39,970 nucleotides of DNA from contig JBOZIK010000001.1 of assembly GCA_051453625.1 (NCBI GenBank), positions 30,234,766-30,274,735 of the forward strand, written 5' to 3'. Made by a program: the position numbers and the translations under genes. How positions within the stretch are numbered: position 1 is the first letter of the stretch; each line of letters begins with the position of its first letter. A model generated the notes under the pieces. It made no database searches. It had not been told where the DNA came from and saw only the letters and a list, made by a program, of their open reading frames with translations. Below, in pieces: positions 4,410-38,200 of the stretch. The DNA is from Welwitschia mirabilis (lineage: Eukaryota).

Positions 4410-4481
<72 letters not shown>

Positions 4482-4651: not shown

Positions 4652-4655
<4 letters not shown>

Positions 4656-8098: not shown

Positions 8099-8309
8099 AG
8101 ATAAAAAAAGATCTTCCGATTAAAACTACTAGCAAAGAGAAGAAAATTTCTTGTACCTGTAATTACTAATAAGTACACTATTAAAATAAATTACACCTAA
8201 GATATAACTTTTAAGATCCAACTATCTATAATAGAATTAATTAGATATAAATTTATGGATTTTAGAAGATTTAAAGTATTAATTACATTATTAAGAAAAC
8301 TTATCTACA
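8099..8309 (-). repeat. 3' LTR of Ale-like copia
   Basis: Colinear but strongly diverged match to 12761-12970 (e.g. TACACTATTAAAATAAATTACACCTAAGATA vs TACACTATTATAATAAGATACAACTAAGATA; TTTTAGAAG shared). Confidence 0.7.
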
Positions 8310-12760: not shown

Positions 12761-12970
12761 TGATAAAAATAATCTCTACCTCTCAAAACTATTATCGAAT
12801 AAAAAAAAAATATATTTATAGTTGTTGATGATTACACTATTATAATAAGATACAACTAAGATACAAGCTTGCATATTTAACTATATACAATAAATTGAAT
12901 TGGATACAAGTTTTTAGTTTTAGAAGTATTTTAATAACTACCAAAAAGAGCTATTCATGATACTCTAATA
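12761..12970 (-). repeat. 5' LTR of Ale-like copia
   Basis: Ends ...TTATCA directly before the tRNA-iMet PBS (11/12 match); homologous to 8099-8309. Confidence 0.75.
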
Positions 12971-13160
12971 AATGAACCTTAGAATTAAATCTTCATGAAG
13001 ACACTCATCATATTTGTAGTAGCTATAATAAGAATGAGATATATGATGAGATGTATCCATTGATTCATAAAACACAATGGTGTTAAAAAATTACAATAAT
13101 AACAAGGAACCTTCATAATGAATATATCTAGAATTATTAGTTCAAAAGTAATCGAAGATC

Positions 13161-13215
13161 CTTAATTAAAAGAATATACTAAGTTATAACTTAATTAAAA
13201 GAATATACTAAGTTA
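13161..13215. repeat. 29-bp tandem duplication
   Basis: CTTAATTAAAAGAATATACTAAGTTA occurs twice with a 29-bp period. Confidence 0.9.
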
Positions 13216-13494
13216 ATTACATAACATATTAAAAAAACTTATTTACATATCACTTAAGCATCACATTATTATTTACTATGTCATAAGTTATAAAAGCCAT
13301 CATTATTAATTAGAACACTGGAAGCATTAACTACATGTCATTCATCCAAGTTTAAAGAAGGAAAAAATGGTAAATATTTATATTCATATAGGACAAGTAT
13401 TTTACTTAGAAGATTTAAAAATGTTAAAGTGATAAAAAAGAAAGGAAAACATGGGAAAAAACTTTTACTATTCATCTAGCAAAAAGTAAAAGAA

Positions 13495-13647
13495 AAACTT
13501 ATGATATAATTGTGAGGAAATTAATGCAAATATTCTAAATATAGTTAGATTTATTACTAAATTAACATGACAAACTTATGATATAATTGTGAGAAACGTA
13601 ATGCAAATATTTTAAATATAGTTAGATTTGTTACTAAATTGACAAGA
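13495..13647. repeat. 77-bp tandem duplication covering the start of an LTR-like sequence
   Basis: AAACTTATGATATAATTGTGAG...TAGTTAGATTT(A/G)TTACTAAATT at 13495 and 13572. Confidence 0.9.
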
Positions 13648-13745
13648 TGATAGATAGATGTACCTTGTGTAAGATACATGAGAGAATAATGTATGTCTAA
13701 GATTCTATTAAGAGATTACCTCATCTATTTAAGAATATGATCACA
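13588..13745 (+). repeat. Truncated copia-like LTR (left partner of 20925-21164)
   Basis: Aligns colinearly with 20925-21080 from the initial TGTGAGAA onward (TAGTTAGATTTGTT, ATGTACCT, ATGAGAGAA, CTATTTA shared). The 3' part of the LTR and the PBS are not seen. Confidence 0.75.
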
Positions 13746-14305: not shown

Positions 14306-14623
14306 TGATGTAACTCCATAATTAAAGTAGTTTATTATAAATTCAATTCATATTATCAAGCCCATAGATTGTTAATTGGCCCCATAATTTATTATTTTTG
14401 TTATTTTCTTAAATCCACATGAATTGCATATTTTTTCAGGAGGATTTTATGTGCTATAATAAGTGGGTATTGTATTACTTTATCATCATTGAATAAAGTT
14501 TGAACTCTTATTTTGAAGGCTAATCATCCTCAAAGTGATTATTGGAGGCTTGACCCCCTCAAAGTGGTTACTTGCTTTCAATTTTCTGCATTTACTTGTA
14601 TTCTTACAACCAAGTTCATAACA
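14306..14623 (+). repeat. 5' LTR of Reina-like element
   Basis: TGATGT...ATAACA; end-to-end homology with 19097-19416. Confidence 0.93.
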
Positions 14624-14651
14624 TTTAGTATTAGAACCTCCTTTCAGATCC

Positions 14652-17600
14652 ATGGCAGATGGCATGAGACTTTCAAAGATATAAAATGACCTTAAAGTCA
14701 TGAAGGAAACATTCGTCAGACAAGTATAAGACATGGAAAGATCAAATAATAAATTAGAAAGAATAGTGGAAATGAATACAGAGGCATTAGAAGATATCAA
14801 AAAAGTAATTGGTGCACTAAAATTAAAGTATAGCCAAGGGAAATCCTTAGCTTCTTTTAAAGAAGTATCTTCTATGGATCATGATCAAACTAAACACCTA
14901 GGATAGAAGGAACTGATACATCAAGTGGATAATGGTGGTGCAATTAAAACATGATTCATGAGACTAGAATTTCTGTGTCTTAATGGAGATGATCCCAACA
15001 AATGGAGCTATAGTGATAAATACTTTTTTAAATTTAATATAACTTTGGAAGCATAAAATATTAGCATAGCCTGCTTTCACCTTGAGAAGAAAGCTCTCTA
15101 ACGATATTAATGATTTGAGAAGATATGAAAAATTAGGGTGTGATGTGGATGAAGTTTTTGAGGTCCTTTGTGCCTGATTTGATTCCATCCTTTATAAAGA
15201 CTATATAAGAGAACCCTTCAAATTTTGATAAACTTCATCTATTCATGATTATCAATCATGATTTGAGCAATTAGTAAATTACACTACTGGATTGATTAAG
15301 TATTTTTTATAATTTGCTTCATCAGTGGATTAAAAGATGAGCTAAAACATTATGTTTAATTTTTTAGATCAATCATAATGTTTGTTGCAATTGAAGTAGA
15401 ATTATTACAAGAGAAGTGACAATAAAACCTAAGTCAATTAAGAAATGAAAAGTTTGTTGCCCCTAGTTCTTTAACTATTCCCTCAACAGAGGGCCCTGTT
15501 GCTCTACTAATTAAGTTGCTAACTCCAGTCGAGCTAAAGACTAGAAGGGATAAGAAGTTATGCTACAATTGTAACAAGAAGTTTGCTCTAAGACATAAAT
15601 GCAAGTTACAACAATTGTTCTTATTAGAAGGGAAGTGGTTTGATGAGGAAAAAGATGAACAACCTACAAATGTTTAAGAGGAGATTCTGGCTGAGGTTTC
15701 CATGTATGCTATTATAGGTTTATTATCAACCCAAATAATGCAACTCAAATGCCTACTTAAATATTAACCTATTATTGTTTTGATTGACTTTGAAAGTACC
15801 CATAATTTTATTGACCTTGTAATTACCAAGAGATTGGAATGCCACATATAGTAAGACAAGTATTTAACGTTATGATGGCAAACGAAGAGAGATTAAAAAC
15901 TCAAGAAAAATGATCTAATTTGCCTTTATTATTTTAAGATTTTAGATTTAGAATCTAGTTATATTTTCTTCCATTAAGTGGTTGCGATGTTATATTAGGG
16001 ACCTTTTGGCTTCACACACTTGATTTAATTTTATGGAATTTTTTTAGACTATTTACATAGTTTAAATAATCAAGGATAAAAATATTCACTGCAAGGGTTA
16101 AGAGGATCACCAACATAAACTATAACATCCATTGCATTGAAAAAAAAAAAATCTAAAAAGAATGCAGCTATTTTAATCAAGTTGTGCTCTATGAAGGAAA
16201 ATAAAGATGCCATAGATGGATCACTAGAATTGAAGAAGTTACTATAAAATTATAGTAATATCTTTGCTATACTTATTGAGCTTCCTCTTACATGGACTCA
16301 AGATCATCAGATTCCTTTATAACCTAGGATCCAACTACCAAATATTTAACTTTATTGGTATCCCACGTCCAAAAAAGAAAAAATTGAAAAACAAATAATG
16401 GAGATTCTTGATGCAGGGATTATTCAGCCTAGTTAGAGTGCTTACTCTTTTTTATTTCTTTTAGTCCAAAAGTCAGATGGTTCCTAAGGGATGTATGTGA
16501 ACTATCAGGAGCTCAATAAAATTATCATTAAAGATAAATTTTCTCTCCCTATCATCAAGGATTATTTGATGAACTTCATAAAGTTTCATACTTTTCCAAA
16601 CTAAACCTTCATTCTGGTTATCATCATATTCATGTATGAGAAGAAGGCATATGCAAAACAGTCTTTCATACTCATCATGGGTATCATGAGTTTTTCATCA
16701 TGCCATTTGGATTAACAAATGATCCATATTCCTTCCAAAGTCTCATGAATGATGTTTTTATCCCTTATCTATGGCAATTTATTTTGGTCTTCTTTGATGA
16801 TATTCTAGACTACAGCCCCACTTAGGAGAAACATATGACTAACTTATAGGAAAATTTTAATGTTTTGAAAAAGAATAAGCTTTTTGTTAAATAATCAAAA
16901 TGTTCATTTGGACAAGATCAAGTAGAATATCTAGGGCACATAATATCCCATTATGGAGTGGCCATTGATCCAAATAATATTGCCTTCATGCTTGATTAGT
17001 CAGTGCCTAAAAGTATTCATGGTTTAAGGGGCTTCTTGGGATTGACTAATTACAATAGAAATTCATCAAAAATTATGGAAAGATTAGTGCTTCCCAAACT
17101 AATCTCCTTAAGAAGGATTCATTCAATTAGAGTTTTAAAGTAGAGCAAGCTTTCAAGGATCTTAAGCAAGCCATAACCATAACATTGATATTAGCTCTCC
17201 CTAATTTTTTAAAATTATTTATAATTAAATGTAATGCCTCTAGTGTAGGAACTAGTGTAGTTCTTATACATGAGAGATGACCATTATCATATACTAGTTA
17301 AATGCTCTCTCAAAAGAATCTTCAGCTATCTACATATGAAAAATAAATGCTAGTTAGTGTGCATGCTATATTAAAAATGGCAACAATACTTAGTTGGAAG
17401 GCATTTTAAAATTTGAAGCAATCATAAAAGTATAAATTATTTAGTCGCTCTGAGAGATGAAATACTAATCCAACTAAAATTAATGGTTAAAATCATGGAA
17501 TATGACTATGAATTTGAGTATAATAAATGTGTAGAGAATGCAACAGCCAATGCTCTCTCTCACAAGTTAGAATTATATCTTTTAGTCCTTTCTTAATCAC

Positions 17601-19070
17601 TATATGCAATAGCTAATGCTCTCTCTCACAAGTTAGAATTATAGCTTTTAGCCCTCTCTTATTCACTATCAACATGAGTTAAAGAAGTAAAAATAGAAAC
17701 TAGTAAAGATAAATTCTCTACACATTATCATCACCAAGTTACAAGAAGTACCAAACAAAGTTCTCAAGTATTCCTATAAAGATGGATTTCTTTATCAAGG
17801 AAGACTAGTTTTGAATGAAAATTCCCAATGCTAATTCGACCTTCTGAAACATCTCCATGATTCTCCTGAGGTAGGGTGCTCTAGGTTGCATAAAACATAT
17901 AAGAGGTTTTCAAGAAACTTCTATTAAAGAGGTACCAAAAAAGATATCAAGTCTTATACTACTAAATGTGAAGCCTATCATAGGAATACGTATGAGACAT
18001 TCTTACTAGGGGTACTTCAGCCATTACCTATCCGTGAATGTATTTAGTTTGACATCTTCATGGATTTCATTAATAGCTTACCATGATATCAGGACAAGAC
18101 TACAATTATGGTGGTGGTGAAATGTATTTCCAAATATGCTCCTTTTGTATCATTGTCTCATTCCTATATAGCACAATAGATGATCAAGTTATTCCTTAAA
18201 AATATCTTTAAATTACATAGTATGCCTACATGCATTATTAGTGATGACCATGTTGTATTTACAAGTGGTTTTTGGAAAGAGTTATCCAGGATGCAAGGTT
18301 CACACTTATGCATGAGATTAGGCTATCATCCATAATCATATAGGTAAATGGAGGTTGTAAATAGATGTTTAAAGACATATTTAAGGTGATTTAATTAGTT
18401 AATATCCAAAGTGATGGGCTAAGTAGCTTCCATTAGTTGAATGGTGGTATAATGCCACTTTTTATTCGTCCACTCAAATAACTCCCTATGAAGCTATTTA
18501 TGGACAATTACCACCTATACTATTATCATATGTTATAGGAACAATAGAAGTTCATCATGTGGATAGGGATTCGCATGAGGAAAACCTTAAAGCTATAAGG
18601 ATCCACATGAAACAACAAGCAGACAAGCACTACATAGAGAATTCCTTTGAGATTGGTAACTTTGTATACCTTAGATTATAGTCATATAGATAAACTTCAC
18701 TAGCTATTCATCATAATTTAAAGCTCTCTCCTTGATATTAAGGACCCTATAAAGTGCTTTAGAAAATTGGCTCCGTTGCTTATAACCTTGAATTGCCTTC
18801 AGGATCTCATAGACATACTATTTTTCATGTCTCATGTTTAAAGAAAAAGATTAGGGATGAAACTATAATAACTATAAAGCTTNNNNNNNNNNNNNNNNNN
18901 GGGATCTTACAAGTACAATTGAAAACTATCTTAGACCATCATATGATAAAGTTTCAAAATCGAGCAGTTACAAAGGTGCTTGTTTAATGGGATAACTTTC
19001 CTCCTGAAAATGCTACTTGGGAATTTCTACATAAGTTACAAGAGAGGTTTCTAAACTTTCAGCCTTCAAA
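14652..19070 (+). pseudogene. Reina-like gag-pol polyprotein pseudogene
   Basis: RLEFLCLNGDDPNKW (gag), LCYNCNKKFALRHKC (zinc knuckle), LIDFESTHNFID (protease), MPFGLTN and LVFFDDIL (RT), CNASSVG (RNase H), MDFINSLP and GPYKVL (integrase), KVLV*WDNFPPENATWE (chromodomain). Many stops. Confidence 0.93.
17539..17669. repeat. 66-bp tandem duplication at the end of RNase H
   Basis: TGCAA(C/T)AGC(C/T)AATGCTCTCTCTCACAAGTTAGAATTATA... at 17539 and 17605. Confidence 0.9.
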
Positions 19071-19096
19071 ACAAGGTTGTTTTGAAGAGGGTGGAA

Positions 19097-19416
19097 TGAT
19101 GTGACCCAATAATTATAGTAGTTTATTATAAACTCAATTCCTATTATCAGGTCCATAAATTGTTAATTGGCCCTATAATTTATTATTTTTGTTATTTCAT
19201 TAAATCCCACATGGATTATGTGATTTATTAGGATGATTTTATGTTCTATAAATAAGTGGATATTATAGTTCTTTATCATCATTGAATAATGTTTGAACTC
19301 TTATGTTTGAGGATACTCACCCTTGAAGTGGTTGTTGGAGGATTGACCCCCTTGAAGTGGTTACTTAATTTTACTTTTCTATACTTACTTACATTCTTAT
19401 GACTGGTTTTGTAATA
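19097..19416 (+). repeat. 3' LTR of Reina-like element
   Basis: TGATGT...GTAATA, directly after the PPT. Confidence 0.93.
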
Positions 19417-19745: not shown

Positions 19746-20420
19746 ATGCTGATAGCATTTTAGGTAATATTTACATCACTAACACGAGCCTTGCATTTAC
19801 CATTAGTAAGAACTAGGATGAAAACACTACTTAGTATTAATCTTTGACACATCTATACACTAGTTCTACNNNNNNNNNNNNNNNNNNNNNNNNNNNNNNN
19901 NNNNNNNNNNNNNNNNNNNNNNNNNNNNNNNNNNNAGGGCATGTAGTGGTTTTTACATACATGTGGTACATGCCTATATTTTCTAGAAGATACTTTTTCT
20001 TTGGGAGACATACATTAATGCCTCCAATACAATGCTTATGATGCACAAAGAAATCTGGTTGCTAACATAATAGGATGCTACAAATGAAGTATTTAACATG
20101 GTAAATGGGGATGCCTTCACTTGGAGAAAGCTTTGGCCATGATTGATGCATGCCTTTGGTTTTAAGATGACATTATAGGGGAAGACTATGAATAAGAATC
20201 TACATGCTATATATTCTATGAGTGACATGGAGTCTAGTTAGGAGGAGATCATTATTGTACATTTGGTGTGGCCAACAAGATGTAAGATTTGGCAGAATGA
20301 TGGCTTTTGAATTATATGTTTGAATGCTGTTTTAATATGCATGAGTAGTAAGAACTGTTTCTTTGAACATCAATATTAGTAAATCAACAATCTATAGATG
20401 AGGGAATTTCTACCATTCAA
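19746..20420 (+). pseudogene. VEP1: PRISE family (progesterone 5-beta-reductase / iridoid synthase-like, VEP1-like SDR) gene fragment lacking its N-terminus
   Basis: RALHLPLVRTRMK/HYL (cf. LKHVSLQTGxKHY), LWETYINASN (cf. WE.Y.DASDA), EIW, NEVFNMVNGDAFTWRKLWP*LMHAFG (cf. NEAFN..NGDVF.WK.LW..LA..FG), MSDMESS*EEII and DLAE*WLLNYMF. Confidence 0.85.
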
Positions 20421-20924
20421 AACTATGAGACATGTTATAACTTTTGATATTTTAGATTAAACACAAAAATTAGAAGACCCAAGAAAATTAAAAATAAAAT
20501 ATAAAACATGATCTTAAGATTGCAAAAATAGTGTGATCTATTACATAGGCATACTATAAAGTAGCTAAAAACAGTGAATTCCACTATTAAGAAGATGCAT
20601 TCTTGAGAAACTTTATTGTACAAGTTGACCAATTTAGCTTATGTGCAAAAATGTCTTACTCCACTTACCAATAAATCAAGAAGAGAAGCATTAAGAAGAT
20701 AATTTGAGTCTTTAACATCATGTGATCAAATCCAAGGAGATCTAGTATGGCAACACCATCAACAATAAAGAAAGCAGATCTCTATTCAAAAAATAAAGAT
20801 AAGCATAAAGACAAGTTAGCTAATATAAATGCATGACTTTGTAAAATGCACATGTAATTGAATAATACATGCATTAAGGGTGTGTATTAGATGATAATTA
20901 AAATTTCATCATTAAAGGGGTGAT

Positions 20925-21164
20925 TGTGAGAAGTGTAATACTAGCATTCCAAATGTAGTTAGATTTGTTCCTAAATTAAGAGGATGAGATACATGTACCT
21001 ATGTAAGGCATATGAGAGAACAATGTATCTATGAGATTATATTGAGATATTGTCTTAGCTATTTATAGAATATGGTTATGAGACTCTCTATATAAATACA
21101 ATTGAATGCTAATGAATATATAGTTACACTAGTGTGGTTTCAACCACTCTACTGATTTTAATCA
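20925..21164 (+). repeat. Complete copia-like 3' LTR preceded by a PPT
   Basis: AAAGGGGTGAT PPT (20914-20924), then TGTGAG...TAATCA with a TATATAAA box at ~21089. Upstream KDKLANI...KGVY* (~20808-20890) resembles a copia RNase H end. Confidence 0.75.
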
Positions 21165-21370
21165 TGGATTTTAATGTTTGGATAGTTTTCGTCCTACTTA
21201 TTTCTTATTTCTCATTAGGTTGTTAAATATTTTGATGATACTCATCATCATGAAGTATTCTACATCTTATCTCATATTTAGAACAAATCATGGATGTTGT
21301 TCTTTTCTCTAAGACTTTCTTCATTTTAACAAACAACATACCATAGTAGAACATGAAATTCCCCATGCCA

Positions 21371-24300
21371 TATTTATGCATTATTTCATTTTTAAATTTC
21401 ATTGAAATATGTGCCATTCATTGGAGTGTGCAACCTAAATGATTAGAAGATCCATCAATCTAAAAAAATGTAGATCTTTGAAGTTTTTGGGAATTAAAAA
21501 TAAAGGATAGAAATGAAGGGAGATTTAATAGCTAAAAACTAGTGGTATTCATGATCTATCAGCTACACTCAACTATTCAGAATGCTCAAACTGATTTTGC
21601 AAGGAGTAGTTCCTTTCTCTTACTTCAGTCAACCAGATTATGGAATTCAAGTAATGTTCCATAGGGTGTACTTCTTGGTCAATGTTGTAAGAAAGGCTCT
21701 GAAGAAATTGATCCCATTGGTTTTACAAGCGGATTCCATTGTAGAAAACTCTAATTAACAAGATTGTGAAAGCACTTTTTATGAAAGCTACAAAAAAGCA
21801 AAGGAGTCCAAAACAATAGCAGCAGTAAAATTCATGCCCTAATTCATCTTTATTCTAAGGCAGATTATTCAAAAATAGGAAATACTTATCCTAATGAAAA
21901 TGCAACTTCTTTCCTACCTAATCACCAACTAGAAAAATAGTAACAACAACTGCATAGTGCCGATGTGAGTTGTACTAGTAGCAATATCGATGGTATTTGT
22001 GACGAGTCCTCAGATAATAACCTCAAAGGGAAAGAAATGCTGAGAACCAAAGGACATGAAGAATAAGATAAGGTTTTTCAAAGTTCAAGCATTCTAATGG
22101 TGGAGGAAGTACTTTTATGTAGGGGTTAGAGGACTAGATAGTTTATTAAGCTCTATCAATGCCATTATTGTGTCCTCATAGAAGGCTTAAAGCTAAGGTA
22201 TTGAGACTTTTATATGACGTATGGAAAGATCACATAGAGGGATCCTACTACTAATGAAAATGATTTTCTGATAGGCTTTAGTATGATTTCATGGGCTATA
22301 AATCAAAGCCCATGGCTCTTACTTCATTTTATTTTAATCATGTTCTCTTTGACAAGCACCAGTAGCTCTATAAGGCTTATTCTAATGTCATAAAAAGGTA
22401 TAGAATTGATATAGTCTTTGTCAATTCTTGCATCTAGCTTTTAATTTTTCATTGCATAATTCTATGATTTTCAATGAACCTGACACACTCTAATATAGTA
22501 GAAAAAATACACAAGAAAGAAATGAATGCGTTATAAAAGTTTTATTTNNNNNNNNNNNNNNNNNNNNNNNNNNNNNNNNNNNNNNNNNNNNNNNNNNNNN
22601 NNNNNNNNNNNNNNNNNNNNNNNNNNNNNNNNNNNNNNNNNNNNNNNATATCAAGCATCCTGATATACAATATGGACCTATTCTATTATTTAACTAAAGG
22701 TGTTCAACATTAATACCATAAACATTTATAATAAGGTACATATGTCAAGTCCAATTCTTATTGTTATGTTTTCATTTATTAATATTACGTTATTATACTA
22801 CATACAAAACATATGTAGTATACTACATACAATATATGCATAATATTACATATATGTTATGTTATATTATATTATATTACATTACACTATATTACATACA
22901 TTACATTATATTATATTATATTACATAACTTTATATTACATCATGCTGTCTCATATGCATAATATTATATATGTATTATGAAAGTGGTAAACATGTTTAA
23001 TTGCTAAACACTTTAGAATTTATTCAGATCTTTGTTCTCCTTTGATTACATAACATCATGAAGTACCTGAAAAATATAAATTAATCTTAATGTTTTTAGA
23101 ATATTTACTCTAATAGAATGCTTTCTTACTCTCAATTAATTAGTGATTAATTTAGGTTAAATGTTAGATGTATTTTCTAATATTCATGTTTCTTCTGGTA
23201 TGATTTAATGCATTCAAATTATGCATAGTATAGTTATTAAATAATGTAATCACATTATGCTTTTCTTACTCTTAATGATTATAGTTAATTCTAGTATAAC
23301 TTGATGCTTTCTAGGTATGTATCCTTAAATATGTATTTTCATATATGTTCATGCATATGAGTTAAATGTTCTAAGTAGTTATTACTATCTTATGCATCAA
23401 ATGATATAATAATAGTAATTATTCTTTAATGCTCATTGAAGTAATTTGGAATTTGATTAACTGTCTTATCTTTAAATTTCTATTATACAAAGTTTATTGA
23501 GATAAATGATTAATTAGTATAATAGAGGCTAGTTCATTCTTGCATACTATACATATATTATATTATAAAAGGAGTAGTTTTAACATACCCTACTAAAATA
23601 GAGTATGTGTATATGCATGTGTGTGTAATTCATATTTTTGCATAAGCTTACTATAATGACATCCTATTATGATATATCCCTTCTGTTGGCTCTAGCCAAG
23701 ACACTAAAGAGATATGAGGGGTCTTTTGTATTTGCTAAATGTCATTACTAATGAATGATTATTGCTAAGTAACCTCTTCAAGGATTTACTCTCTCTCTCT
23801 TTTTACATACTTACATACATACCTACATACATAAATTTACATGTGTATTATCATCATTCATACATTGGAATTTCTTAATAGTATTAGATGTTATAACCTC
23901 AGGAGTTCTTGACTAACTACCTCTTATACTTTTACATATGGCTACTATGTATATGTACATATATTCGTGTGCGATATGTATTGATATTGGTTTGAATATT
24001 AAGTTATTGCATTATTCCTTGCATTCTTTCATGTTTAAGATTACCACATGTCACTGACATGAACCACTTTGATCTATCTTATGCTCATGTATATCGGTGG
24101 AGATGGGAATGAGATCCAAGATAAAATTATGTGTGGTTTTCAATCCTCTGGATGACGACTACATAAGCATTGTTGCTCAGCAATTGGAGAAATAAACCAC
24201 TTGACTACAACCTACCCACTTCGTCTATGTGCCTTTAATCAAGATTTCTGATTAATCTTAAGACTAGTATGATATTAGTCAGGTGGACTATTATCACATA

Positions 24301-24475
24301 GTTCACTTGATGTAAATCCTATGAGTAACTGAAAGCTAAGTCTCTCAGTTGTAATGTAAATCATTCTATTGCAATGTTTAATCTTGTCATGTAAATTACT
24401 ATTCTATAATGTAATTTAGTTTTAAAAAAAAAACATTTATGCCTTTAGATCCAACCCAAAAACTGGGTTGTGACT
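21371..24475 (+). repeat. 5' giant LTR (copy A) of a non-autonomous Tekay/Del-like element
   Basis: Long direct repeat with 24660-29103; ends CTGGGTTGTGAC(T), cf. canonical GGGTCGTGACA, followed by a PBS. The true start is probably ~10-15 bp left of 21371. Contains a 100-N gap. Confidence 0.75.
21790..22397 (+). pseudogene. KANSL2: KANSL2 / INO80 complex subunit D-like exon, copy A
   Basis: Core 22082-22397: LMVEEVLLCRG*RTR*FIKLYQCHYCVLIEGLKLRY*DFYMTYGK, then YDFMGYKSKPMALTSFYFNHVLFDKHQ*LYKAYSNVIK. This matches plant LTREEVLRRR.RR.KQL...YRDHYWALMEELK..YREYYW.YGK and zf-C3Hc3H C.F.GCKSKAMALTSFC..HIL.D..Q.LYK.C.YVIK. Followed by an AG|GTATAG donor at 22398. Confidence 0.88.
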
Positions 24476-24478
24476 TTT

Positions 24479-24490
24479 TGGTATTACAAC
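24479..24490 (+). promoter_or_regulatory. Primer-binding site (tRNA-iMet type, decayed)
   Basis: TGGTATTACAAC (9/12 to TGGTATCAGAGC) followed by CTAGGTT, as typical downstream of Tekay/Del PBSs. Confidence 0.7.
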
Positions 24491-24646
24491 CTAGGTTTGT
24501 ATCCATTACTTTGTCAAGTAGTTAATGATCTTATTAAAGTAATGCATGGCTTAGTCTTAGGTTTGGATCCATCACTTAATCAATTCATTAATGATTTTAT
24601 TAGAGTAAAATTTGGGCTAAGTACTTTTTAAGGATGAAAACTTATT

Positions 24647-24659
24647 AAAGAGGAGAGAA
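24647..24659 (+). promoter_or_regulatory. Polypurine tract
   Basis: TTTAAGGATGAAAACTTATTAAAGAGGAGAGAA|TATAACACC parallels the Tekay/Del TTCGAGGACGAAA...TAAGGGGGGGAGAA|TGTAACACC junction. Confidence 0.75.
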
Positions 24660-25077
24660 TATAACACCTCCTATTTATGCACTATTGCATTTTTAAATTG
24701 CACTGGGGTGTGTGCCATTCATTGGAATGTGCAACCTGAATGATCAAAAGAGCCATTAATCTAGAAAAATGTATATCTTTGAAGTTTTGGAGAAATGAAA
24801 ATGAAGGGTAGAAAGAATGGGAGATTCAATAGTAAAAAACTAGTGGTATTCATGATCTGTTGGTTGCACTCAACTATTTAGAATGGGCGAACCAACTTTA
24901 CAAGGATAGGTTCCTCTATCTCATTTCATTTGACCGAAATGCAAAATTCAAGTAATGTTTCATAGGATGCACTTCTTGGTCAATGTTGTAAGAAAGACTC
25001 TAAACAGATTAGCCATATTGGTTTTATAAGTGGATTTAATTATAAGAAACTCTAATTGAATAGCACCTTTTATGGAA

Positions 25078-25681
25078 ACTACAGGGAAATAGAGTAATTC
25101 AAAAAGACAACAATAATAAAACCCATGCCCTAATTTATCTTTGTCAAAGGCAAATTATTCAAAGAGGAAATACTAACCCTAGTGAAAATGTAACTTCTCC
25201 TATGACCCATTACTAGCTAAAACAATAGTAACTACGAGTGCATGATGTCAATGCAAGTTGTAATTGCAACAATACTCATGCTGTTTGTGGTGACACGTCA
25301 GATAATAACCTCAAAGAGTGAGAAATGCTGAGAACCGAAGGACATAAATAAGAATATATGATTTTTCAAAGTTCAAACATTCTAATGATGTAGGAAGTCC
25401 ATTGACATAGGAGTTAGAGGATGAGATAGTTTGTTAAGCTCTATCGGCACAATTATTAAACCCTCATGGAGGGCCTAAACATAGGGTATTGATACTTTTA
25501 TATGAAGTATGGAAAGAGTGCCTGGAAGAATCCTACTACTGATAAAAATGATGTTTCTATGACTTTAAGTATGCTTTCATGGGCTACAAATCAAAGTCCA
25601 TGGCTCTCACTTCATTTTGTTTTAATCATATTTTTTTTTATGAGTTCTAGTATCTCTACAAGGTTCTTATGTCATAAAAAG
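25078..25681 (+). pseudogene. KANSL2: KANSL2 / INO80 complex subunit D-like exon, copy B
   Basis: Core 25370-25681: LMM*EVH*HRS*RMR*FVKLYRHNY*TLMEGLNIGY*YFYMKYGKSAWK, then YAFMGYKSKSMALTSFCFNHIFF...YLYKV. Confidence 0.88.
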
Positions 25682-27019
25682 TTATGGAACTGATATATTC
25701 TTTATGAATTCTTGCATCTAACTTTTGATTTTGCATTGCATAATTCTATGATTTCAAATGAATACAACACGCTTGGATATAGTAAAAAAGATACATAAGA
25801 AAGAAGTGAGTGAGCTTTGAAAGTGTTCATTAATGTTTTAAGATTAACTATTAGAAGAGTGTATTAACGACTAGTTCTATGGTAAAATTAGAGTTTACAT
25901 CTCATTTGGATAAATTCTGGCTTTGAAAGTTAACACATTAATTAAATGATTGCTTTAAATACATGTAAAGTTATTTTTCTTTGTGAATTTTTATTTCTTA
26001 ATGAAATGATTCATGTGATACCTAAAATCACTTATAATTTAATGCACATTCCTTCACTTACAAAGGTTACTATAGCACTGAATTTGAGAGGTGTAGTGAC
26101 ATGTCTACTTGTCAATTGAAGGAATCTTTGTCAAATTCAAATTTATTAAGATACTTTTTAAATTTGCAGCCCTTATATTAGGAAGAAATCAATTTAATAT
26201 AATGTTTAGAGCATTACCTGTTGGAACTCCAATCATAGTTAGGATAAGTGAAGAACTAAAAGTTAAAAATGTTAATTGAAAAAAATAAGAAATTTATAAT
26301 AATCATCTGGAAGTCATGTAACAACAAAATGTAATAAATTTCATTAAATATTTGAGAAGTACTTCATGATTCCATTAATTATTCTTTTTATACATATTTA
26401 TGTTTAATATAATTATAATTTATTGACAAACAAATTTTCAATTTTACAAGCTACAACACTAGCCTAACATTGTAGATATTTTATATATTTAGAAGAATGA
26501 TAAGCATGGCAGATTAGGAAAAACTACATACATTGAAGAATTTAAGTGAAATAAACAAAAACAAATAAGTTGCTAGGACTATACCAAGGTCATAGAACTT
26601 AACAACCACCTCAATAAAAGAATGTAGCCTAAATGTACCTTTAAGTTAGAACTTACAAGACTACATCCATTGTTAAAAGTAAAGTGTAATATATAAATTG
26701 TCTAAGTCAAATAAGTTGTTACCTTCTCAATCACCAGAATGTTTTAATGACTAAGGAAAACTTGTTTCCAAAATAAGAGAAGCACTTATATAAATCTTAA
26801 GAGTTTAGCTAGTATTTAAAGGATACCTTCATTGTATCTATTATCTATTAAACACCTTTTTTTCTAGTATGTTATTTAAAGAAAGTTAATTTGATTTAGA
26901 AAAACAAAAAGGCCAAAACGGTTGTCAATTTTGTGAAAAATCAATAGATGCCTAAACTTAAGGAAGGATATTATTTTGGTATTTGTGTTGTAAAATAGAC
27001 ATTATAAAATAATGCATAT

Positions 27020-27198
27020 GTATAATGTCATATTATATTATGTTATATTATATCATGTTTTAACATAATATTATATTATGTTGTGTTATATTATAAGATA
27101 TTATATCATAATAAACTATATTTCTTATAAATTATATTATATTATACATTATATTATCTTATATTAAATTATTATATTGTATTGTAACTATACTATAT

Positions 27199-27241
<43 letters not shown>

Positions 27242-27480
27242 TATTGTATTATATCATAATTATATTATATNNNNNNNNNNNNNNNNNNNNNNNNNNNNNN
27301 NNNNNNNNNNNNNNNNNNNNNNNNNNNNNNNNNNNNNNNNNNNNNNNNNNNNNNNNNNNNNNNNNNNNNNTATTAAATTATTATATTGTATTGTAACTAT
27401 ACTATATTATATTATATTATTTATATATATACTATTATATTTTATTATATCATAATTATATTATATTATATTACATTTAA
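27020..27480. repeat. (ATATT)n/(TA)n low-complexity tract; shorter counterpart at ~22780-22940
   Basis: Degenerate TATTA pentamers and a TA run. Confidence 0.9.
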
Positions 27481-29101
27481 GCATAGTATCATATTAAATT
27501 ATATAATGTCGTCTCATGTGCTTAGCATTATGTATTTATTATAAAGGATAGACATGTGTAATTACTATCTTAAAATGCATTAGGCGATGAGAGAGATTTC
27601 AATCTCAACATTCTAATATTTGTACCTTTAACTTATATTACAACTATCATGACCTATTAAATGAAGAAGTAACCACTAGTTAGACTGCAACAATGTTCAT
27701 ATTTTTAGGCTTAAACATCTTTTATTTAGGAGTTAAATATACAANNNNNNNNNNNNNNNNNNNNNNNNNNNNNNNNNNNNNNNNNNNNNNNNNNNNNNNN
27801 NNNNNNNNNNNNNNNNNNNNNNNNNNNNNNNNNNNNNNNNNNNNTAATTATTATCTTAAAATGCATTAGGGAATGAAAGAGATTTCAAACTCAACATTCT
27901 AATATTTGTACCTTTCACTTATATTACAACTATCATGACCTATTAAATGAAGAAGTAACAACTAGTTAGACTACAACAATGTTCATATTTTTAGGCTTAA
28001 ACATCTTTTATTTAGGAGCTAAATATACAATATATTATACAAATCAGATTATCTATGATATGTTTATGATTTCATGCAATTATATTATGTATAATATAGT
28101 AAATTATGGTGCAAGTTTAGCATGTTTTTCAAAGTTGCTTTTAGGATGCCGTAATGCTTTCTAGAAATGCCTAAAAATAATTTCTTACATGTCCATGCAT
28201 ATGAGTTAAATATTCCAAGTAGTCACTTGTTATCTTATGCATAAAATGATATAATAATAGTGAATATCATATGGTGCTCAATGAAATAATTAGGCACTTA
28301 ATTAGTGACCTTTATCCTNNNNNNNNNNNNNNNNNNNNNNNNNNNNNNNNNNNNNNNNNNNNNNNNNNNNNNNNNNNNNNNNNNNNNNNNNNNNNNNNNN
28401 NNNNNNNNNNNNNNNNNNAAATTAGATTATGTATGATATGTTTATGATTCCATGCAATTATGTTATGTATAATATAGCAAATAATGGTGCAAGTTTAGCA
28501 TGTTTTTCAAAGTTGGTTTTAGGATGCCTTAATGCTTTTTAGGGATGCCTAAAAATAATTTCTTACATGTCCATGCATATGAGTTAAATATTCCAAGTAG
28601 CCACTTGTTATCTTATGCATAAAATGATATAATAATAGTGAATATCATATGATGCTCAATGAAATAATTAGGCACTTAATTAGTGATATTTATCCTTTGA
28701 CTTCTATTGACCTCATTCTATTGAGATTACAAACTTAATCAATGGCATATGGGCTATTCTCATTGGCATGTTATATGTATATATTATCAGGATCATTATG
28801 ATATGTTATAAAAGGAGAAACTAAGAGGTATCNNNNNNNNNNNNNNNNNNNNNNNNNNNNNNNNNNNNNNNNNNNNNNNNNNNNNNNNNNNNNNNNNNNN
28901 NNNNNNNNNNNNNNNNNNNNNNNNNNNNNNNNNNNNNNNNNNNNNNNNNNNNNNNNNNNNNNNNNNNNNNNNNNNNNNNNNNNNNNNNNNNNNNNNNNNN
29001 NNNNNNNNNNNNNNNNNNNNNNNNNNNNNNNNNNNNNNNNNNNNNNNNNNNNNNNNNNNNNNNTACTAATGGATATTTTTGCTAAGTGACTAAGGGATTT
29101 A

Positions 29102-29103
<2 letters not shown>

Positions 29104-29155
<52 letters not shown>
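29104..29155. repeat. (AC)n microsatellite
   Basis: Perfect AC run. Confidence 0.97.
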
Positions 29156-29157
<2 letters not shown>

Positions 29158-30501
29158 CATTTTAATAGGATACCTCTTAGTTTACAACCTATGCTCAGTT
29201 GTACATTTTACGAGGAGTTTTTAATGTTTTTATCTTTTACATTTATTTTCTCACAAACCATATTCAGAATGTAGTGGTCCTTTAGGCAAAATTCGTTAGT
29301 TTGATATGTTCTACAAGTCTATTAGATTTGATTTTTCATTTGAGCACTTTGAATTTTTACCATATGTGAGGCCCACTTAAAACACCACTTTTCAAATTTT
29401 CACACATTTCACATTTTTCTTCTTCTATTTAGGCAATTTAGAATGTATTGTGATTCTTAAAGTGTTCAGGATGTATTTTTAACATTTTTCATATTTTTTA
29501 TTAATTTTTGGGGGTCGTTATTATGCATCCATGTGATCCATTTGATGTATTTTTTTCCATTTTTGCATGATGTTTTTATGTATTTTAGATTTAGTAGCCC
29601 CATACATGTAGATCTAAATAGGCTGAGGTAGAGGCTGAAGCTATAAAGTAGGAGGCAAGCACAATAATATTGTCAAAAATAGAGTGTGTAGGAGGTAAGC
29701 CTAATGATATTTATCATTCATCAAATTAGAGGTAAACCTTCTGTGTAATACAGACTTGAGGTATTTACTTGGATAATCCTTTTTTTTCTATTTCTTATTT
29801 CTCTAATTTAACTTGTCTACATAATAGATACATTATGTTTAATAAGTGGAATAATCAAAACTAGAATTTTACCAACAGGTTCTGCCTTTTAGCAATTATA
29901 TTAGATAGAACTCTCTAAGATTATTTTACAACATCATTTTTTAGTGGTTCAAATATAAGTTTAACTCTACTATCCACATCCTTACATGTTAATCTTAAAA
30001 CATCTTTTGTTGCTCTATCACCTAACCCGTTCATGATAATAGTCTTCTCACTCTTGTCTTATGTTTATTTAAGAAACACTAACCCATCAATTTTTAACAA
30101 GCTAATCATGCAATTCAAAAGATTTGTAATAAAGGATTCCATTCAACACTAGTCTTAAAAATTTAAAAAACATTATGACATCCTTTATTCCATCTTCATA
30201 AATAAGTTTATAACAGACAAATATCAGAGCACTAGTATCCTCTTTGTAAATAATATAAAATGATGTAGTAAGATCCTTGATTTGATGTTGTGTTTTATTT
30301 AATATTGTTACCTTTAAAGTATTTATTCTTTAAAGTTAATTTTCCTCTTTTAATCCATTTGCCTAAATTCTCCAAGAAATGGAGCATTAAAAAAGCTAAT
30401 TGAATGCATTCATAACTCATAAAACTTTAGCCTTCTTCAATAGCATCATGACCTCAAACAAGAATACACTTTAATGATATAAATTTATAAATTGCATAAT
30501 T

Positions 30502-32275: not shown

Positions 32276-35200
32276 TTTTGAGACCATTGCTGGGAAAGGT
32301 TATAAGAAGCTAGATGATTGTTACTATCTATATAAGTACCTTGAATTTTAGTTCAAGTTATTTATTTGAAATAGTATTGTATTTTTATTTATAGTTTGAT
32401 GGGTCTATTTCAGTAATTTTTTTATTTTCTGTAGTTTTAAAGATCTCTGTCATCTTCACTATCATCCCCATGACATTAGGAATGACAGTCCTAAATTTTT
32501 AAATTTATTTTTTTAGAATTTTCTTTCTAATTTTAGAGTAGTAATAAGAATATTATCATCTTCTCTGTTAGACCCAAGATATACTGAATAATAATCTAGT
32601 NNNNNNNNNNNNNNNNNNNNNNNNNNNNNNNNNNNNNNNNNNNNNTGATCATTGTTCCGTTCTGTCTTCCCCATGACCATGTGGACAACTATTAGTTGTT
32701 TTTAATTTTAGGTTTTGTTTAATATCTTAGATATGTAAGTTTATCATGAATTCTAGTAGAAAGATGAAATTTTAGAGAGAGTGGAACTTGATTAAAGAAA
32801 ATATCAAAGAAGGATTATTTGACTTTAAGCAAAATCCAAGTATGCACATTCTAGGTACAAAAATTCCAAGAATTAAAGAATAACACTTTCCTACTTTTAT
32901 TATTTTAGAATCAAATTTTACAAAAGAAAATGATAGCATAGAAATAGATCATGTCATTTATTCTTCAACTACATTAAAATCTTCACAAAAATAAAAGCAA
33001 GTCACTTTGTCTAATACGTCAATCATGATAGGAACTTCTACTTTAAATGTAAATGTTACTCTTAGAGATTTAGTTGCTAATAGAAAATGTAAAATCAATA
33101 ATCTTTTTGACTTACCTACCAGTGATGATGTAGAATTAAGAAATTTGGGTGTTTATCCAACATTTTTAGAGAAACTTGAAAAAGACCCTTTCCAACATCT
33201 AGCTGACATTGAACAACTTGTGTTTACCTTAGGAAGTGGAAAGAAACACATTAGTGATCATACTTACCTGATTATTTTTCTAGTCATACTTAGAAAAAAG
33301 GCAAAACTTTGGATTAAAACCATTCCACATAAGAGTCTTAAATCATAGAGTCAAGTGTAAGAAGTTTTTATTAAAAGATTTTTAAGTGGAAGTACCATGA
33401 GAAAAAGAAGAAAGAAAGTTATCAAATTTTAACAACCACCTTACGAGAATTATGCCACAACATATGAATGTTTTATTATAGCTNNNNNNNNNNNNNNNNN
33501 NNNNNNNNNNNNNNNNNNNNNNNNNNNNNNNNNNNNNNNNNNNNNNNNNNNNNNNNNNNNNNNNNNNNNNNNNNNNNNNNNNNCCAGGTATGCACATTCA
33601 AGGTACAAAAATTTCAAGAATTGAAGAATAACATTTTGCTGCTTTTATTATTTTAGAATCAAATTTTACAAAAGAAAATTGTAGCATAGAAATAGATCAT
33701 GTCATTTGTTCTTCAACTATATTAAAATCTTTACAAAAACAAAAGCAAGTCACTTTGTCTAATACGTGAATCATGATAGAACTTCTACTTTAAATGTAAA
33801 TGTTACTCTTAGAGATTTAATTGCTAACAGAAAATGTAAAATCAAAAATATTTGTGACTTACCTACCAGTGATGATGTAGAATTAAGAAATTTGAGTGTT
33901 TATCCAACATTTTTAGAGGAACTTGAAAAAGACCCTTTCCAACATTTGGCTGACATTAAACAACTTGTGTTTACCTTAAGAAGTGGAAAGAAACACATTA
34001 GTGATCATAATTACCTGGTTATTTTTCTAGTCATACTTAGAAAAAAGGTAAAACTTTGGATTAAAACCATTCCACATAAGGGTCTTAAATCATGGAATCA
34101 AGCGCAAGAAGTTTTTATTAAAAGATTTTTAAGTGGAAGTACCATGAGAAAAAGAAGAAAGAAAGTTATCAACTTTTAACAACCAACTTACGAGAATTTT
34201 GCCATAACATATGAATGTTTTATTATAGCTAGCCATTTCAACCCTATTGATAAAGAAGAGCTAGTATATTATTTCTACAGTGGATTAAACATTCAAATTA
34301 ATTAATTATTGTGGTGGAAACTTAATGAACTTAGTTTTAGAAGAGGAATGAAATATGTTGGAAAACCTAGTAGAGATAAGTCAAACTTGGCTTAAACCCA
34401 CTAAAGACAATCAAAATATAAATTATAAAAGACTTAAAGGAGATAANNNNNNNNNNNNNNNNNNNNNNNNNNNNNNNNNNNNNNNNNNNNNNNNNNNNNN
34501 NNNNNNNNNNNNNNNNNNNNNNNNNNNNNNNNNNNNNNNNNNNNNNTATAAATTACAAAAGACTTAGAGGAGGTAAAACATGAAAAGGAAAAGAGATAGC
34601 TAACTTAACCAATGTAATTAAGGATTTCACTACCACTTTAGAGAAGTACACTTAATTGATAGTTGACATAAAGGTAGTAAAAAATAAAAAAGGATAGTTT
34701 TGACTTATAATATTTATGAAGACAACTCTTATCTAACTAAAGAGTGTCCCTTATTACCAACTTGTAAAGAAAGGATGTTTAAGGAGATGGATGTATTCAA
34801 CCAAAGAACACTGAAATTTAAAAGCCAATCACANNNNNNNNNNNNNNNNNNNNNNNNNNNNNNNNNNNNNNNNNNNNNNNNNNNNNNNNNNNNNNNNNNN
34901 NNNNNNNNNNNNNNNNNNNNNNNNNNNNNNNNNTCGACTTATAATATTTATGAAGACAACTCTTATCCAACTAAAGAGTATCCCTTATTACCAACTTGTA
35001 AAGAAAGGATGTTTAAGGAGATGGGTGTATTCAACCAAAGAATACTAAACTTTAAAAGCCAATCACAATTTCACCAAAGATTTAGTGGATACTCACAATT
35101 GAAACCTTTTGAGAATAGATTTAAGAATGCAAACTTTCAAACAAGTAACCTCAATTTTCAACCAAATCAAAATGATCTACTTAGAGAATCTATAGAAGAA

Positions 35201-38200
35201 TTGAAAAATATGTAAGAAAAGACTAACAATAATATTTAAAACTTATTGAATGTCCTTCAATAAATAATGCTTGCTAATTAAATACGACAAAGGTCTCTTG
35301 CATCTCAACCTTTGCCCAACTCAAATGAAGTCAAGAGATATTTAAAGGCTATAATAAGAAGTAGATATGATGCAACACCTCCTACTCATGGGATTTTAAC
35401 TTTCAAAAATAATGGAAAAAGTAATGAAAAAAGATGATGTATAAATTTTGGACTCATATAACTTCCCATTAACATCTCATGCTAAAACTGCTACTAAAAA
35501 TTCTTTACAAGAAAACAAAGGTGAAAAAACCATCTACTTCTTGGCTTGATCAGTTAAATATGATTTTTACTTTTGATGAATACTTGAAGACCTTGATACA
35601 AGAGGTAAACATCAACTTATATTTTTAAAAACTCTTGTAAGATAATCCTAAATATTCTAAGTTATGAAAAGACCTAGTGAGAATGAAATAAAAATATACC
35701 ATTCCTAGTAAAGTATTTTTTGCTTAATATATTTCCAATTTAGTCATGAAAAAGTGTTCTAAATTTAAAGACCTTAGAGTAGTAATAATGAGTATTACTT
35801 TTTAAGAAAACAAAAGAATTCAAAAAGCTTTAATTGACATAGAAACTAGTATAAATATCATGCCTTTGCACATACACAAAAGACTTGGGTTAAAAAACAA
35901 AATAGAACCTACATGAATTATCTTGGAATTGGCTAATACTTTAATTAATAAAACCTTAGGAATTATCAAGAATGTAGTTATCCAAATAGAGGAAGTTTTT
36001 TACCCCATAAATATAGTCATCATTGAGGTAGAACATGATGGAGATTATCCACTACTTTTATGAAAAGCCTTTTATGTAAATGTCTACTATGTCATTGATA
36101 CATGAACCAAGATAATGGAATGTCATTTAGGCAATAAGAAGTTTACTAATTTATTTTTTGATGCTATTAAAAAATAAATAGAATATGAGTTTAACTTAGA
36201 AAAAGAACTTAAACCAATCTTTTTTTTACAACATCAGCCAATTGAGGAGAGATTAATAATGTTACACGAACTATCTTTGTGTGATGACCTAACCAAAACA
36301 TACTACTTTGAGTATGAGAGTGAGGAAACTTTTAAGAAAAACCAACATGTTTACTCACTAGAAAACCTTTTTTTAGTGTCATCCCATGTCTATTGTCCCC
36401 AAAATAGATAGGACAATAGTTTAAAATTCTAACTTAGAACTTAAGGAATTACCTAAAGGTATGAAATATATTTTTCTATCCAATAATCTAAAGAAACCTA
36501 TGATAATAAGTGATTTTCTTACTCTTAAATNNNNNNNNNNNNNNNNNNNNNNNNNNNNNNNNNNNNNNNNNNNNNNNNNNNNNNNNNNNNNNNNNNNNNN
36601 NNNNNNNNNNNNNNNNNNNNNNNNNNNNNNGGATATAAGTTTAACTTAGAAAAATTGAACTTAAACCAACCTTTTTTTTACAACATCAGCCAATTAAGGA
36701 GAGATTAATAATGTTACACGAACTAGCTTTGTGTGATAACCTAACCAAAACATACTACTTTGAGTATGAGAATGAGGAAATTGTTGAGAAAAACCAACAT
36801 GTTTACTCACTAGAAAACATTTTTATAGTGTCATCCCATGTCTATCGTCCCCAAAATAGATAGGACAATAGTTTAAAATTCTAACTTAGAACTTAAGAAA
36901 TTGCCTAAAGATATGAAATATATTTTTCTATCCAATAATCTAAAGAAACCTCTGATAATAAGTGATTTTCTTACTCTTAAATAAGAGTCCAACTTGAACT
37001 CACTTTTAACTTCTAAAAAATATTCTTTACTTAGACTCATAAAGAGTTAGTTGTCATTCCTCTTTTCATAGTCCAATACAAAACTTACCTTGAGGATAAT
37101 GCTAAACCTATTAGGAAACCCTAACAAAGGCATAACCCAGTCCTTAAGTAAATAGTTAAAGATGAAATTATTAAACTTATAAATGCTAGTATCATCTATA
37201 ATATATTTAATAATAAGTGAATTGACCCTTTAATAGTAGTTCCAAAAAAGGGTGGAAAATGGAGAAGGTGCATTAATTTTAAAAAACTTAATGAGGTCAT
37301 TAAAAAGGATCATTGCCTTTTTTCTNNNNNNNNNNCATGCCTACTATTATTTTCTTAATGGGTATCGTGGCTATAATCAATTTTGCATAGTAAGTAAAGA
37401 CCAAGCTAAAACAACCTCTACCTCATCTTTAGAACCTTTGCCTTTAGATGAATGCCTTTTAGACTTTCTAATGCTTCTAAAACTTCCCAATGAGTAATGA
37501 TGAGGATCTTTTTTGATATGATAGAGGATTCTATTAAAATATTTATGGATGACTTCTCCATCTTTAGTAAAATATTTGAATAAACAATAGAAATATTAAA
37601 GAGATTCTTCAATTGATGTATAGAGAGTGGTCTACATTTGAGTTGGAAAACGAGTTTCTTCCTTGTCAATTATGAAATTGTTTTAGGTTATTACATTTCA
37701 AAGGAAGGGATTAAGATGGACCCTACAAATGTTGATATCATTAAAAACCTTAGCCCTGCAACTAATGTCAATAAGTTAGATCATTTCTTAGTCATGCTAG
37801 TTTCTATCATTGTTTTATTCATGATTATGCTAAAATTTGTAAATCCTTTCACTCATAACTCAAAAAAGACACTAAATTCGATTGGAATGATTCGTGTCAA
37901 CTTGCATTTGATACACTTAAGAAAAACATTTCTTCTAAACCTATTGTCATAGGTCCTGATTGGACTAAAGATTTTGAACTCATGTGTGATGTAAACAACA
38001 TCGTTCTGGGTGGGGTTCTTGGCTAAAAATATGAAAATAGTTTTAAAGTTATATCCTATCTTAGTAAAAATTTGTTCAAAAGTATAATCCAACTACACCA
38101 CTATTGAAAGGAAAATGCTTACCATTATTTTTTGCCTTAGTTATCTTAGACATTATCTTATTGGTTTCCACATTAATGTTTATATAGATCACATAGCTAT

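Follow-up and report, generated by a model that had tools for sequence, protein, structure and literature searches.

We analysed a stretch of 39,970 nucleotides from the Welwitschia mirabilis genome (GenBank assembly GCA_051453625.1, contig JBOZIK010000001.1, positions 30,234,766 to 30,274,735 of the forward strand), which is called the window below and is numbered from its first letter. It contains two long direct repeats with the signals of the long terminal repeats (LTRs) of a retrotransposon, and each repeat carries a decayed piece of an INO80D/KANSL2-like host gene. The repeats, the gene fragment in both of them, a primer-binding site (PBS), a polypurine tract (PPT) and a downstream interior are all present at the locus. 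Taken together they probably represent an old Ty3/gypsy-type element, either complex or internally deleted, whose LTRs hold the host gene fragment and which is found at essentially a single locus. The window is AT-rich (about 22–33% G+C per kb outside gaps), and the scans covered its 37,623 non-N bases, which are interrupted by 17 N gaps. Contig depth was taken from two DNA runs (X3 and X5), and reads were taken from two RNA runs (X13 and X16). Contig depth is given throughout as a sum at 80% likeness and does not stand for copy number; single contigs give a summed depth of about 4–8, and dips in depth are not treated as findings. The features of the locus are the following:

21359–24475, + strand: LTR1, the upstream long repeat, from the repeat alignments, with its end set by the PBS directly after it.
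21875–22428, + strand: copy 1 of the decayed 5′ end of the INO80D/KANSL2-like gene (tblastn, profile match, phmmer).
23172–24475, + strand: 3′ part of LTR1, which is high-copy and comes from an abundant LTR family (summed depth, X3 and X5).
24479–24490, + strand: PBS, with three mismatches to the initiator-methionine type 12-mer and support from family contigs.
24492–24608, + strand: leader with an internal direct repeat (pairwise alignment, contig joints).
24647–24659, + strand: PPT, a 13-nt purine run directly upstream of the LTR2 start.
24660–30214, + strand: LTR2, from the repeat alignments, with a TGTAAC-like start 9-mer (one mismatch); secure to about 29105.
25247–25700, + strand: copy 2 of the decayed 5′ end of the INO80D/KANSL2-like gene (tblastn, PF13891 match).
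29104–29155, + strand: (CA)n microsatellite, at which the detectable homology of LTR1 and LTR2 ends.
30204–30230, + strand: LTR 3′ end motif (30204–30215) and second PBS-like site (30219–30230, three mismatches).
34030–38270, + strand: decayed Ty3/gypsy-type interior with gag (34030–34290), reverse transcriptase (RT, 37374–37664) and RNase H (37883–38270), broken by frameshifts and stops.

By self-BLAST and MAFFT, 21371–22543 matched 24672–25827 with 77.9% identity over 1177 columns. Relaxed scoring added two weaker collinear matches, of 23102–23459 to 27963–28304 (67%) and of 23199–23561 to 28443–28787 (68%). After a 231-N gap in LTR2, about 45 bases at 29064–29105 resemble 23746–23795 by eye, and the local alignment beyond this gap was not significant as a whole (score 67, shuffles 58.5 ± 7.2). 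The (CA)n microsatellite corresponds to a degenerate CT/ACAT-rich stretch at about 23795–23840 in LTR1. For the last ~680 bp of repeat 1 (about 23800–24475) no significant match was obtained in LTR2 or elsewhere in the window. The Kimura two-parameter (K2P) divergence of LTR1 and LTR2 was 0.263, from 174 transitions and 77 transversions over 1161 aligned sites. The usual plant substitution rates are 1.3e-8 and 7e-9 per site per year, and at these rates the repeat copies are about 10–19 million years old.

Both repeats are interrupted by gaps. LTR1 holds 100 N at 22548–22647; a 720-nt contig of run X5 extends 261 nt into this gap and a 921-nt contig of run X3 matches 26081–27017 at ~84%, as a counterpart from copy 1 would, so the gap probably hides about 1 kb of sequence. 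LTR2 has N gaps at 27271–27370, 27745–27844, 28319–28418 and 28833–29063. Upstream of LTR1, a third LTR or leader was sought, and 19936–21370 showed no similarity to the rest. A model with short LTRs starting near 23880 was ruled out, because 23800–24671 had no match in 24672–25800. As a separate observation, the stretch just upstream of LTR1 (20834–21167) is moderately repeated (summed depth 420–529) and matches 13586–13739 at 79% over ~155 nt.

The host gene fragment lies within the first ~1.1 kb of each repeat, on the element's strand. It starts at about the first residue of its homologues, residue 1 of one of which aligned at 21875 by tblastn, and it reaches the exon/intron junction and continues into the intron. 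When the stop-to-stop frames of the repeat heads were compared with Pfam, 1 of 52 matched PF13891 (25552–25647, E 0.042, 14.6 bits). The read-through of copy 1, with X at stops, gave E 0.0062 and 17.2 bits, and the read-through of copy 2 gave no PF13891 match. Both direct matches fall below the PF13891 cutoff of 27 bits. A phmmer search with the copy-1 read-through returned three proteins at E ≤0.001 (1.8e-4 to 6.7e-4) among 1.84 billion representatives, and PF13891 was above cutoff in all three. One of these proteins had 338 relatives at E ≤1e-5, whose source names were INO80 complex subunit D-like or KAT8 regulatory NSL complex subunit 2.

The best protein was then placed on both copies by tblastn. 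In copy 1, residues 38–126 aligned to 21962–22228 and residues 169–213 to 22288–22413, the latter being approximately the zf-C3Hc3H part. In copy 2, residues 38–137 aligned to 25250–25549 and residues 166–197 to 25567–25662. Identity was 36–60% over ~135–145 residues in each copy. With 122 family proteins as queries, all 431 tblastn matches at E ≤0.01 fell in 21800–22430 or 25200–25700, so the window contains no further exons of the INO80D/KANSL2-like gene. The match crosses an AG/GT junction into the apparent intron read-through of two database proteins. This indicates that the source was genomic DNA or unspliced RNA and not a processed mRNA. Copy 1 has 8 in-frame stops in 120 codons and two changed cysteine positions in its zinc-finger motif, and copy 2 has 12 stops in 125 codons; both are dead pseudogenes. 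RNA reads on the exon are 80–90% alike, reaching 95% or more in 0 of 139 cases (X13) and 1 of 81 (X16). We take their origin to be a paralogue that is expressed, presumably the parent gene. A PDB sequence search with the copy-1 fragment gave no meaningful match. We also checked for a Pack-MULE-like carrier, and no terminal inverted repeats were detected around the gene-bearing segment except for AT-rich low complexity.

The two repeats are separated by a spacer of 184 bp (24476–24659). Its PBS motif is not significant alone, since the window has 12 matches with up to three mismatches, against 20.5 expected. Run X5 has 45 contigs whose alignment starts at 24556, and the consensus of their loose ends shows a one-mismatch PBS immediately upstream. 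The site at 24479–24490 was accepted because these other family copies have a near-canonical PBS at the same place. It shares a T at the seventh position with the PBS of the verified Ty3/gypsy element of the window (14306–19399). In the leader, the two units of the internal repeat (24492–24542 and 24558–24608) are identical at 42 of 51 positions, a score reached by 0 of 500 shuffles; Tandem Repeats Finder (TRF) did not report this repeat. Family contigs differ in the copy number of the unit, with joints at 24608>24553, 24385>24553 and 24398>24476. No tRNA genes were found.

On the other side of the spacer, the PPT is one of 19 purine runs of at least 12 nt on the + strand of the window and is followed by TATAACACC. 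The 9-mer at the LTR2 start has one mismatch to TGTAACACC and stands 12 bp before the repeat homology. One-mismatch sites of TGTAACACC number 12 in the window, against 6.2 expected. We accepted the PPT/LTR-start junction because the verified Ty3/gypsy element shows the same style of signal, and on these motifs we regard the junction at 24659/24660 as real with moderate confidence. The PPT side of the spacer (24609–24671) had no counterpart after 30271 (score 21; 71% of 1381 control windows scored as high). An 11-base identity between 24662–24672 and 35371–35381 was taken as chance on a rough estimate.

A second set of element signals was found downstream of repeat 2. Besides the verified element itself, the 12-mer at 30204 is the only place in the window, on either strand and with up to one mismatch, that matches this element's LTR end. 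The 12-mer at 30204 ends in ...ACA, and the PBS-like site begins 3 nt later. The segment 24405–24545, comprising the LTR1 end, the PBS and the first leader unit, aligned to 30150–30271, and 0.43% of 1399 control windows scored as high. DNA depth falls at about 30204–30230 from 843–1024 to 10–12. Further downstream, the gag segment matched Retrotrans_gag (2e-6, 28.4 bits) and the RT segment matched RVT_1 (8.8e-7, 29.3 bits, just under the 29.6 cutoff). The RNase H segment matched RT_RNaseH (1.2e-13) and RT_RNaseH_2 (1.5e-9 and 1.2e-11). No integrase or chromodomain match was obtained downstream of 38270, and the RT and RNase H domains seen are of a generic Ty3/gypsy type. The literature text searched gave no statement of a Tekay LTR terminus. 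A PPT upstream of repeat 2, combined with a PBS and a coding interior downstream of it, is the signature of an LTR common to two units.

Other observations were made in this downstream part. RNA-seq reads of two runs cover 30167–30269 and 30316–30497 at under 95% likeness, with the highest RNA depth of the examined stretch (30167–30497, 4–8 per strand class). These reads have sharp ends; the sequence beyond them is GC-richer, with an agreement of 0.98–1.0. This suggests that an expressed locus elsewhere has the two pieces in common. No Pfam match was obtained. An exon-like piece was noted at 30105–30329. A hairpin-like motif of ~40 nt occurs four times, at 30808, 32465 and 32668 (+) and at 1075 (−), with short inverted arms around a conserved TCCCCATGA core, and may be the terminus of a small repeat.

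Depth differs strongly along the repeats. The gene-bearing segment (21502–22503 and 24842–26845) had a summed depth of 6–41, or ~1–4 contigs per site, and the first ~130 bp of LTR1 with its flank had 78–85. Position 24671 was covered by 10 contigs of X3 and 4 of X5, and the coverage was 1–3 contigs ~150 bp further in. For 23172–24507 the summed depth was 1790–11,293 (X3, X5), and at 24552 it was 392 and 1712. Over the 3′ part of the repeats and the leader it was ~400–13,000. What stands out is a peak in the 3′ part of the repeat, 100- to 1000-fold higher, and not a dip. The depth of the gene segment is explained by its two copies at this locus together with the parent gene and a possible third LTR. 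Nothing points to amplification of a gene-bearing family or to further multiplication of the gene-bearing LTR. Separately, 29184–29517, right after the (CA)n microsatellite, had the highest DNA depth of the examined stretch (12,204–13,233). It has no detectable similarity to the equally abundant 23840–24173 and may be a separate, very high-copy small element.

A sequence-only reading of 21371–29103 had described two long direct repeats around a short interior, with a KANSL2/INO80D-like exon in each. As a description it holds in part, and its interpretation is partly supported. The direct repeats are confirmed by the main alignment and the weaker collinear blocks. The order of LTR end, PBS, short interior, PPT and LTR start is real, the PBS being backed by the 45 family contigs, and the same gene fragment is indeed found in both repeats. 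The PF13891 check proposed for the exon gave a weak direct profile match, but all three phmmer proteins carry this domain and tblastn matches both copies. The zf-C3Hc3H exon is thus present in both repeats, but the fragment is larger than proposed, ~550 bp, and extends into the intron. For the repeat boundaries, the PBS and PPT do frame the spacer, but the homology starts 12 bp after 24660. The Tekay/Del type given for these signals is at most putative; it would call for an integrase with a C-terminal chromodomain, and neither domain is visible for this element. The end proposed for repeat 2 at 29103 is merely an N-gap edge, and the signature of LTR end and PBS is at 30204–30230. Repeat lengths of 3–4 kb had been given, but the N gaps and the duplicated gap flanks distort them and make them unreliable, and the last ~680 bp of repeat 1 is unmatched.

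In the reading we favour, that of an old complex or internally deleted element, the layout would be LTR1, PBS, a 184-bp interior remnant (leader and PPT), LTR2, PBS, leader, and a decayed gag–RT–RNase H interior that runs off the window. The LTRs would be very long (at least 3–4.5 kb) and composite, with a short LTR start, a low-copy gene segment and a high-copy 3′ part. The gene segment would correspond to the genomic 5′ untranslated region, the first coding exon and the start of intron 1 of the INO80D/KANSL2-like gene, on the element's strand. The fragment would have entered the U3 region of the LTR before the last reverse-transcription cycle, which would place it in both LTRs. Unequal recombination between LTRs, or template switching, may then have given an array in which two interiors share LTR2. 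Alternatively, a related element may have nested in LTR2, or recombined into it, at the microsatellite. An illegitimate deletion would have shrunk the first interior to 184 bp. By analyzing the signals as those of LTRs, the PPT, the PBS and the repeat boundaries are explained together.

Several results weigh against this reading. Under it, the first 12 bases of LTR1 have to be taken as unconserved, since the homology begins at 21371/24672, 12 bp past the putative LTR start at 24660, and the first 12 bp of the two LTRs agree at 4 or 5 of 12 positions. It must also accept termini that are not a clean TG...CA, as LTR2 begins with TATAAC and LTR1 ends with ...GTGAC. The 3′ end of the locus, where the second half of a target-site duplication of 4–6 bp would be expected, is beyond the window. 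Host DNA next to an inserted element would likewise give a low-copy gene part and a high-copy remainder of the LTR. The likeness of 24405–24545 to 30140–30290 is modest, and the 0.43% of control windows includes the query's own windows. Finally, 23841–24416 and 29156–30149 showed no significant likeness, ranking 72nd among 204 control windows. It may be, therefore, that the microsatellite marks a truncation of LTR2 and that the downstream PBS and interior belong to another, related element. The stretch 29156–30149 of LTR2 is either rearranged or derived from a related nested or recombined LTR.

Part of this evidence would fit a segmental tandem duplication. A dead INO80D/KANSL2-like paralogue would have received an LTR-retrotransposon in intron 1, and a block of ~3.3–4.3 kb would then have been duplicated. 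This explanation seems unlikely to us, and is nevertheless the strongest of the alternatives. The block would run from the upstream region of the gene through exon 1 and part of the intron to the 5′ LTR and PBS, ending ~195 bp into the interior, an extent we likewise hold to be unlikely. This history also requires that the gene fragment at no time belonged to an LTR and that the PPT-like run is leader sequence, which is similarly doubtful. The gene part is low-copy and in its natural genomic order of upstream region, exon and intron, the homology begins sharply at 21371/24672 and not at 24660, and neither a target-site duplication nor clean LTR termini were seen. A PBS, leader and gag–RT–RNase H interior also follow the second unit, as a duplication predicts. 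However, the 13-nt purine run and the TGTAAC-type 9-mer would have to occur by chance within 12 bp of the junction, with 19 such runs per strand in 37.6 kb and 12 such 9-mers in ~80 kb, counting both strands. A duplication should also repeat the spacer's final 63 bp after the second leader, and no counterpart was seen there, with limited sensitivity for 63 diverged bases. A different proposal, made by the sequence-only reading, was a dedicated non-autonomous family with LTRs of 3–4 kb, an interior of ~184 bp and the gene fragment in U3, transposing as such. Its order of LTR, PBS, PPT and LTR is real, the contig count at the PPT/LTR-start junction (24671) is above that ~150 bp inward, and a fragment shared by both LTRs means that reverse transcription took place at least once after its capture. 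Even so, we consider such a family improbable, because the gene part has a summed depth of only 6–85 (~1–5 contigs per site), compared with ~400–13,000 over the 3′ part and leader, and the LTR divergence of 0.263 leaves nothing recent. The claim of a multiplied gene-bearing LTR is thus not supported by the depth. The claim of a distinct giant-LTR family with an interior of the size seen in terminal-repeat retrotransposons in miniature (TRIMs) is not supported either, as a PBS-like site, a leader homologous to the first one and decayed gag, RT and RNase H come after repeat 2. The short interior thus looks like a local deletion remnant, and the miniature element seems to be the upstream half of an element that is complex or rearranged.

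An assembly artefact, in which the repeats are mis-scaffolded alleles or collapsed repeat copies, must be weighed in a window with 17 N gaps. At least five of these gaps have near-identical sequence on both flanks (94–95% identity by self-BLAST), for example 32836–33483/33584–34230; two such duplications are inside repeat 2 (28041–28318/28419–28696 and 27559–27744/27845–28030, ~95%) and inflate its apparent length. More broadly, the flanks of the gaps at 4482, 27271, 27745, 28319, 33484, 34834 and 36531 match at 85–100% by self-BLAST, in blocks of 70 to 648 nt. From their sequence, the duplicated flanks look like scaffolding artefacts of a draft plant assembly, similar to unmerged overlaps or alleles. 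The repeat copies themselves differ by 22%, compared with 5% at the artefactual duplications. In addition, separate contigs from two independently labelled run sets match each copy at 97–99% identity, and at least one contig crosses the spacer/LTR2 junction, passing 24671 with 116 letters to spare. These results indicate that the locus is real, and an artefact is scarcely credible. The practical lesson is that gap-rich draft assemblies need checks of copy number and gap flanks before long repeats become a new element class.

Two other retroelements were observed in the window. A compact, decayed Ty3/gypsy element with frameshifted domains occupies 14306–19399 (+), with LTRs of ~320 bp at ~83% identity. 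Its domains are RVT_1 (2.4e-19), RNase H, an integrase zinc-binding domain and SH3_Tf2-1. Its signals are a purine tract followed by a TGATGTAAC start, an LTR end in ...AAGTTCATAACA and a PBS-like site at 14626–14637. A Ty1/copia remnant lies at ~9568–12760 (−), with a one-mismatch PBS at 12749–12760 preceded by ...TCA and an RVT_2 match at ~9568–9768 (E 1.5e-8).

If the gene fragment truly belongs to the LTRs, both ends of the element received host genomic sequence through reverse transcription. An LTR is a rarely described placement for a host gene fragment; most reported captures are said to be inside the element. Captured fragments can link transposon silencing to the parent gene. That a gene-bearing U3, retrotransposed at least once, still persists as a small family, including solo LTRs, and feeds small RNAs acting on the expressed parent gene is, taken as a whole, very improbable in our view. 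The copies are old, dead and essentially single-locus, so a present-day effect is unlikely.

In TRIMs the LTRs do not exceed a few hundred bp and the total length is ~1 kb or less, and they form multi-copy families. Large retrotransposon derivatives (LARDs) have long LTRs, a non-coding interior of several kb and multiple copies. The present locus is similar to both in having no coding capacity between LTR1 and LTR2 while retaining a PBS and a PPT. Compared with TRIMs, its LTRs are far longer, at least 3.1 kb, and compared with LARDs its interior is 184 bp and the gene-bearing part of its LTRs is low-copy.

The comparisons that follow extend to text passages of the cited works. Gene capture by plant LTR retrotransposons is well documented there, for example for Bs1 in maize (2026 review, PMC13317346). 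In maize, captures of gene fragments were recorded in 425 of the intact elements, with at least 189 captures (Baucom et al. 2009, PMC2774510), and 672 were recorded in rice and 1343 in sorghum (Jiang & Ramachandran 2013, PMC3726574). As in those maize, rice and sorghum cases, including Bs1, a non-functional piece of a host gene lies here in sense orientation in an LTR retrotransposon and decays as a pseudogene. The passages in PMC2774510, PMC3726574 and PMC13317346 place the captures inside the element and do not state a location in an LTR, whereas here the fragment is within both LTRs and has kept its exon/intron junction. A statement of a host exon in both LTRs was not found in these passages, and we do not claim that such a case is unreported. 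Cross-talk by small RNAs between captured fragments and their parent genes in maize has been studied as a conflict (bioRxiv 10.1101/777037).

BARE-2 and the long variant of the TRIM Veju obtained chimeric LTRs by aberrant template switching, according to the same review (PMC13317346). As proposed here, foreign sequence in the LTR region then appeared in both LTRs of the daughter copies. In those cases the insert was retrotransposon-derived or of unknown origin and families were formed, whereas here it is a host gene fragment with no evidence of a family. Another parallel is given by complex insertions in which two elements share an LTR. These are described as not uncommon and are attributed to post-integration recombination or template switching (Sabot & Schulman 2007, PMC1950507). 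As in those elements, the middle LTR here has a PPT upstream and a PBS downstream, and the units have the same orientation. The present locus differs in that its first interior is down to 184 bp, that host-gene sequence sits in unusually long LTRs, and that for the 3′ third of the shared LTR no homology to the corresponding part of LTR1 could be demonstrated. Beside these systems, the object looks like an old, dead, single-locus element and not a new kind of mobile element.

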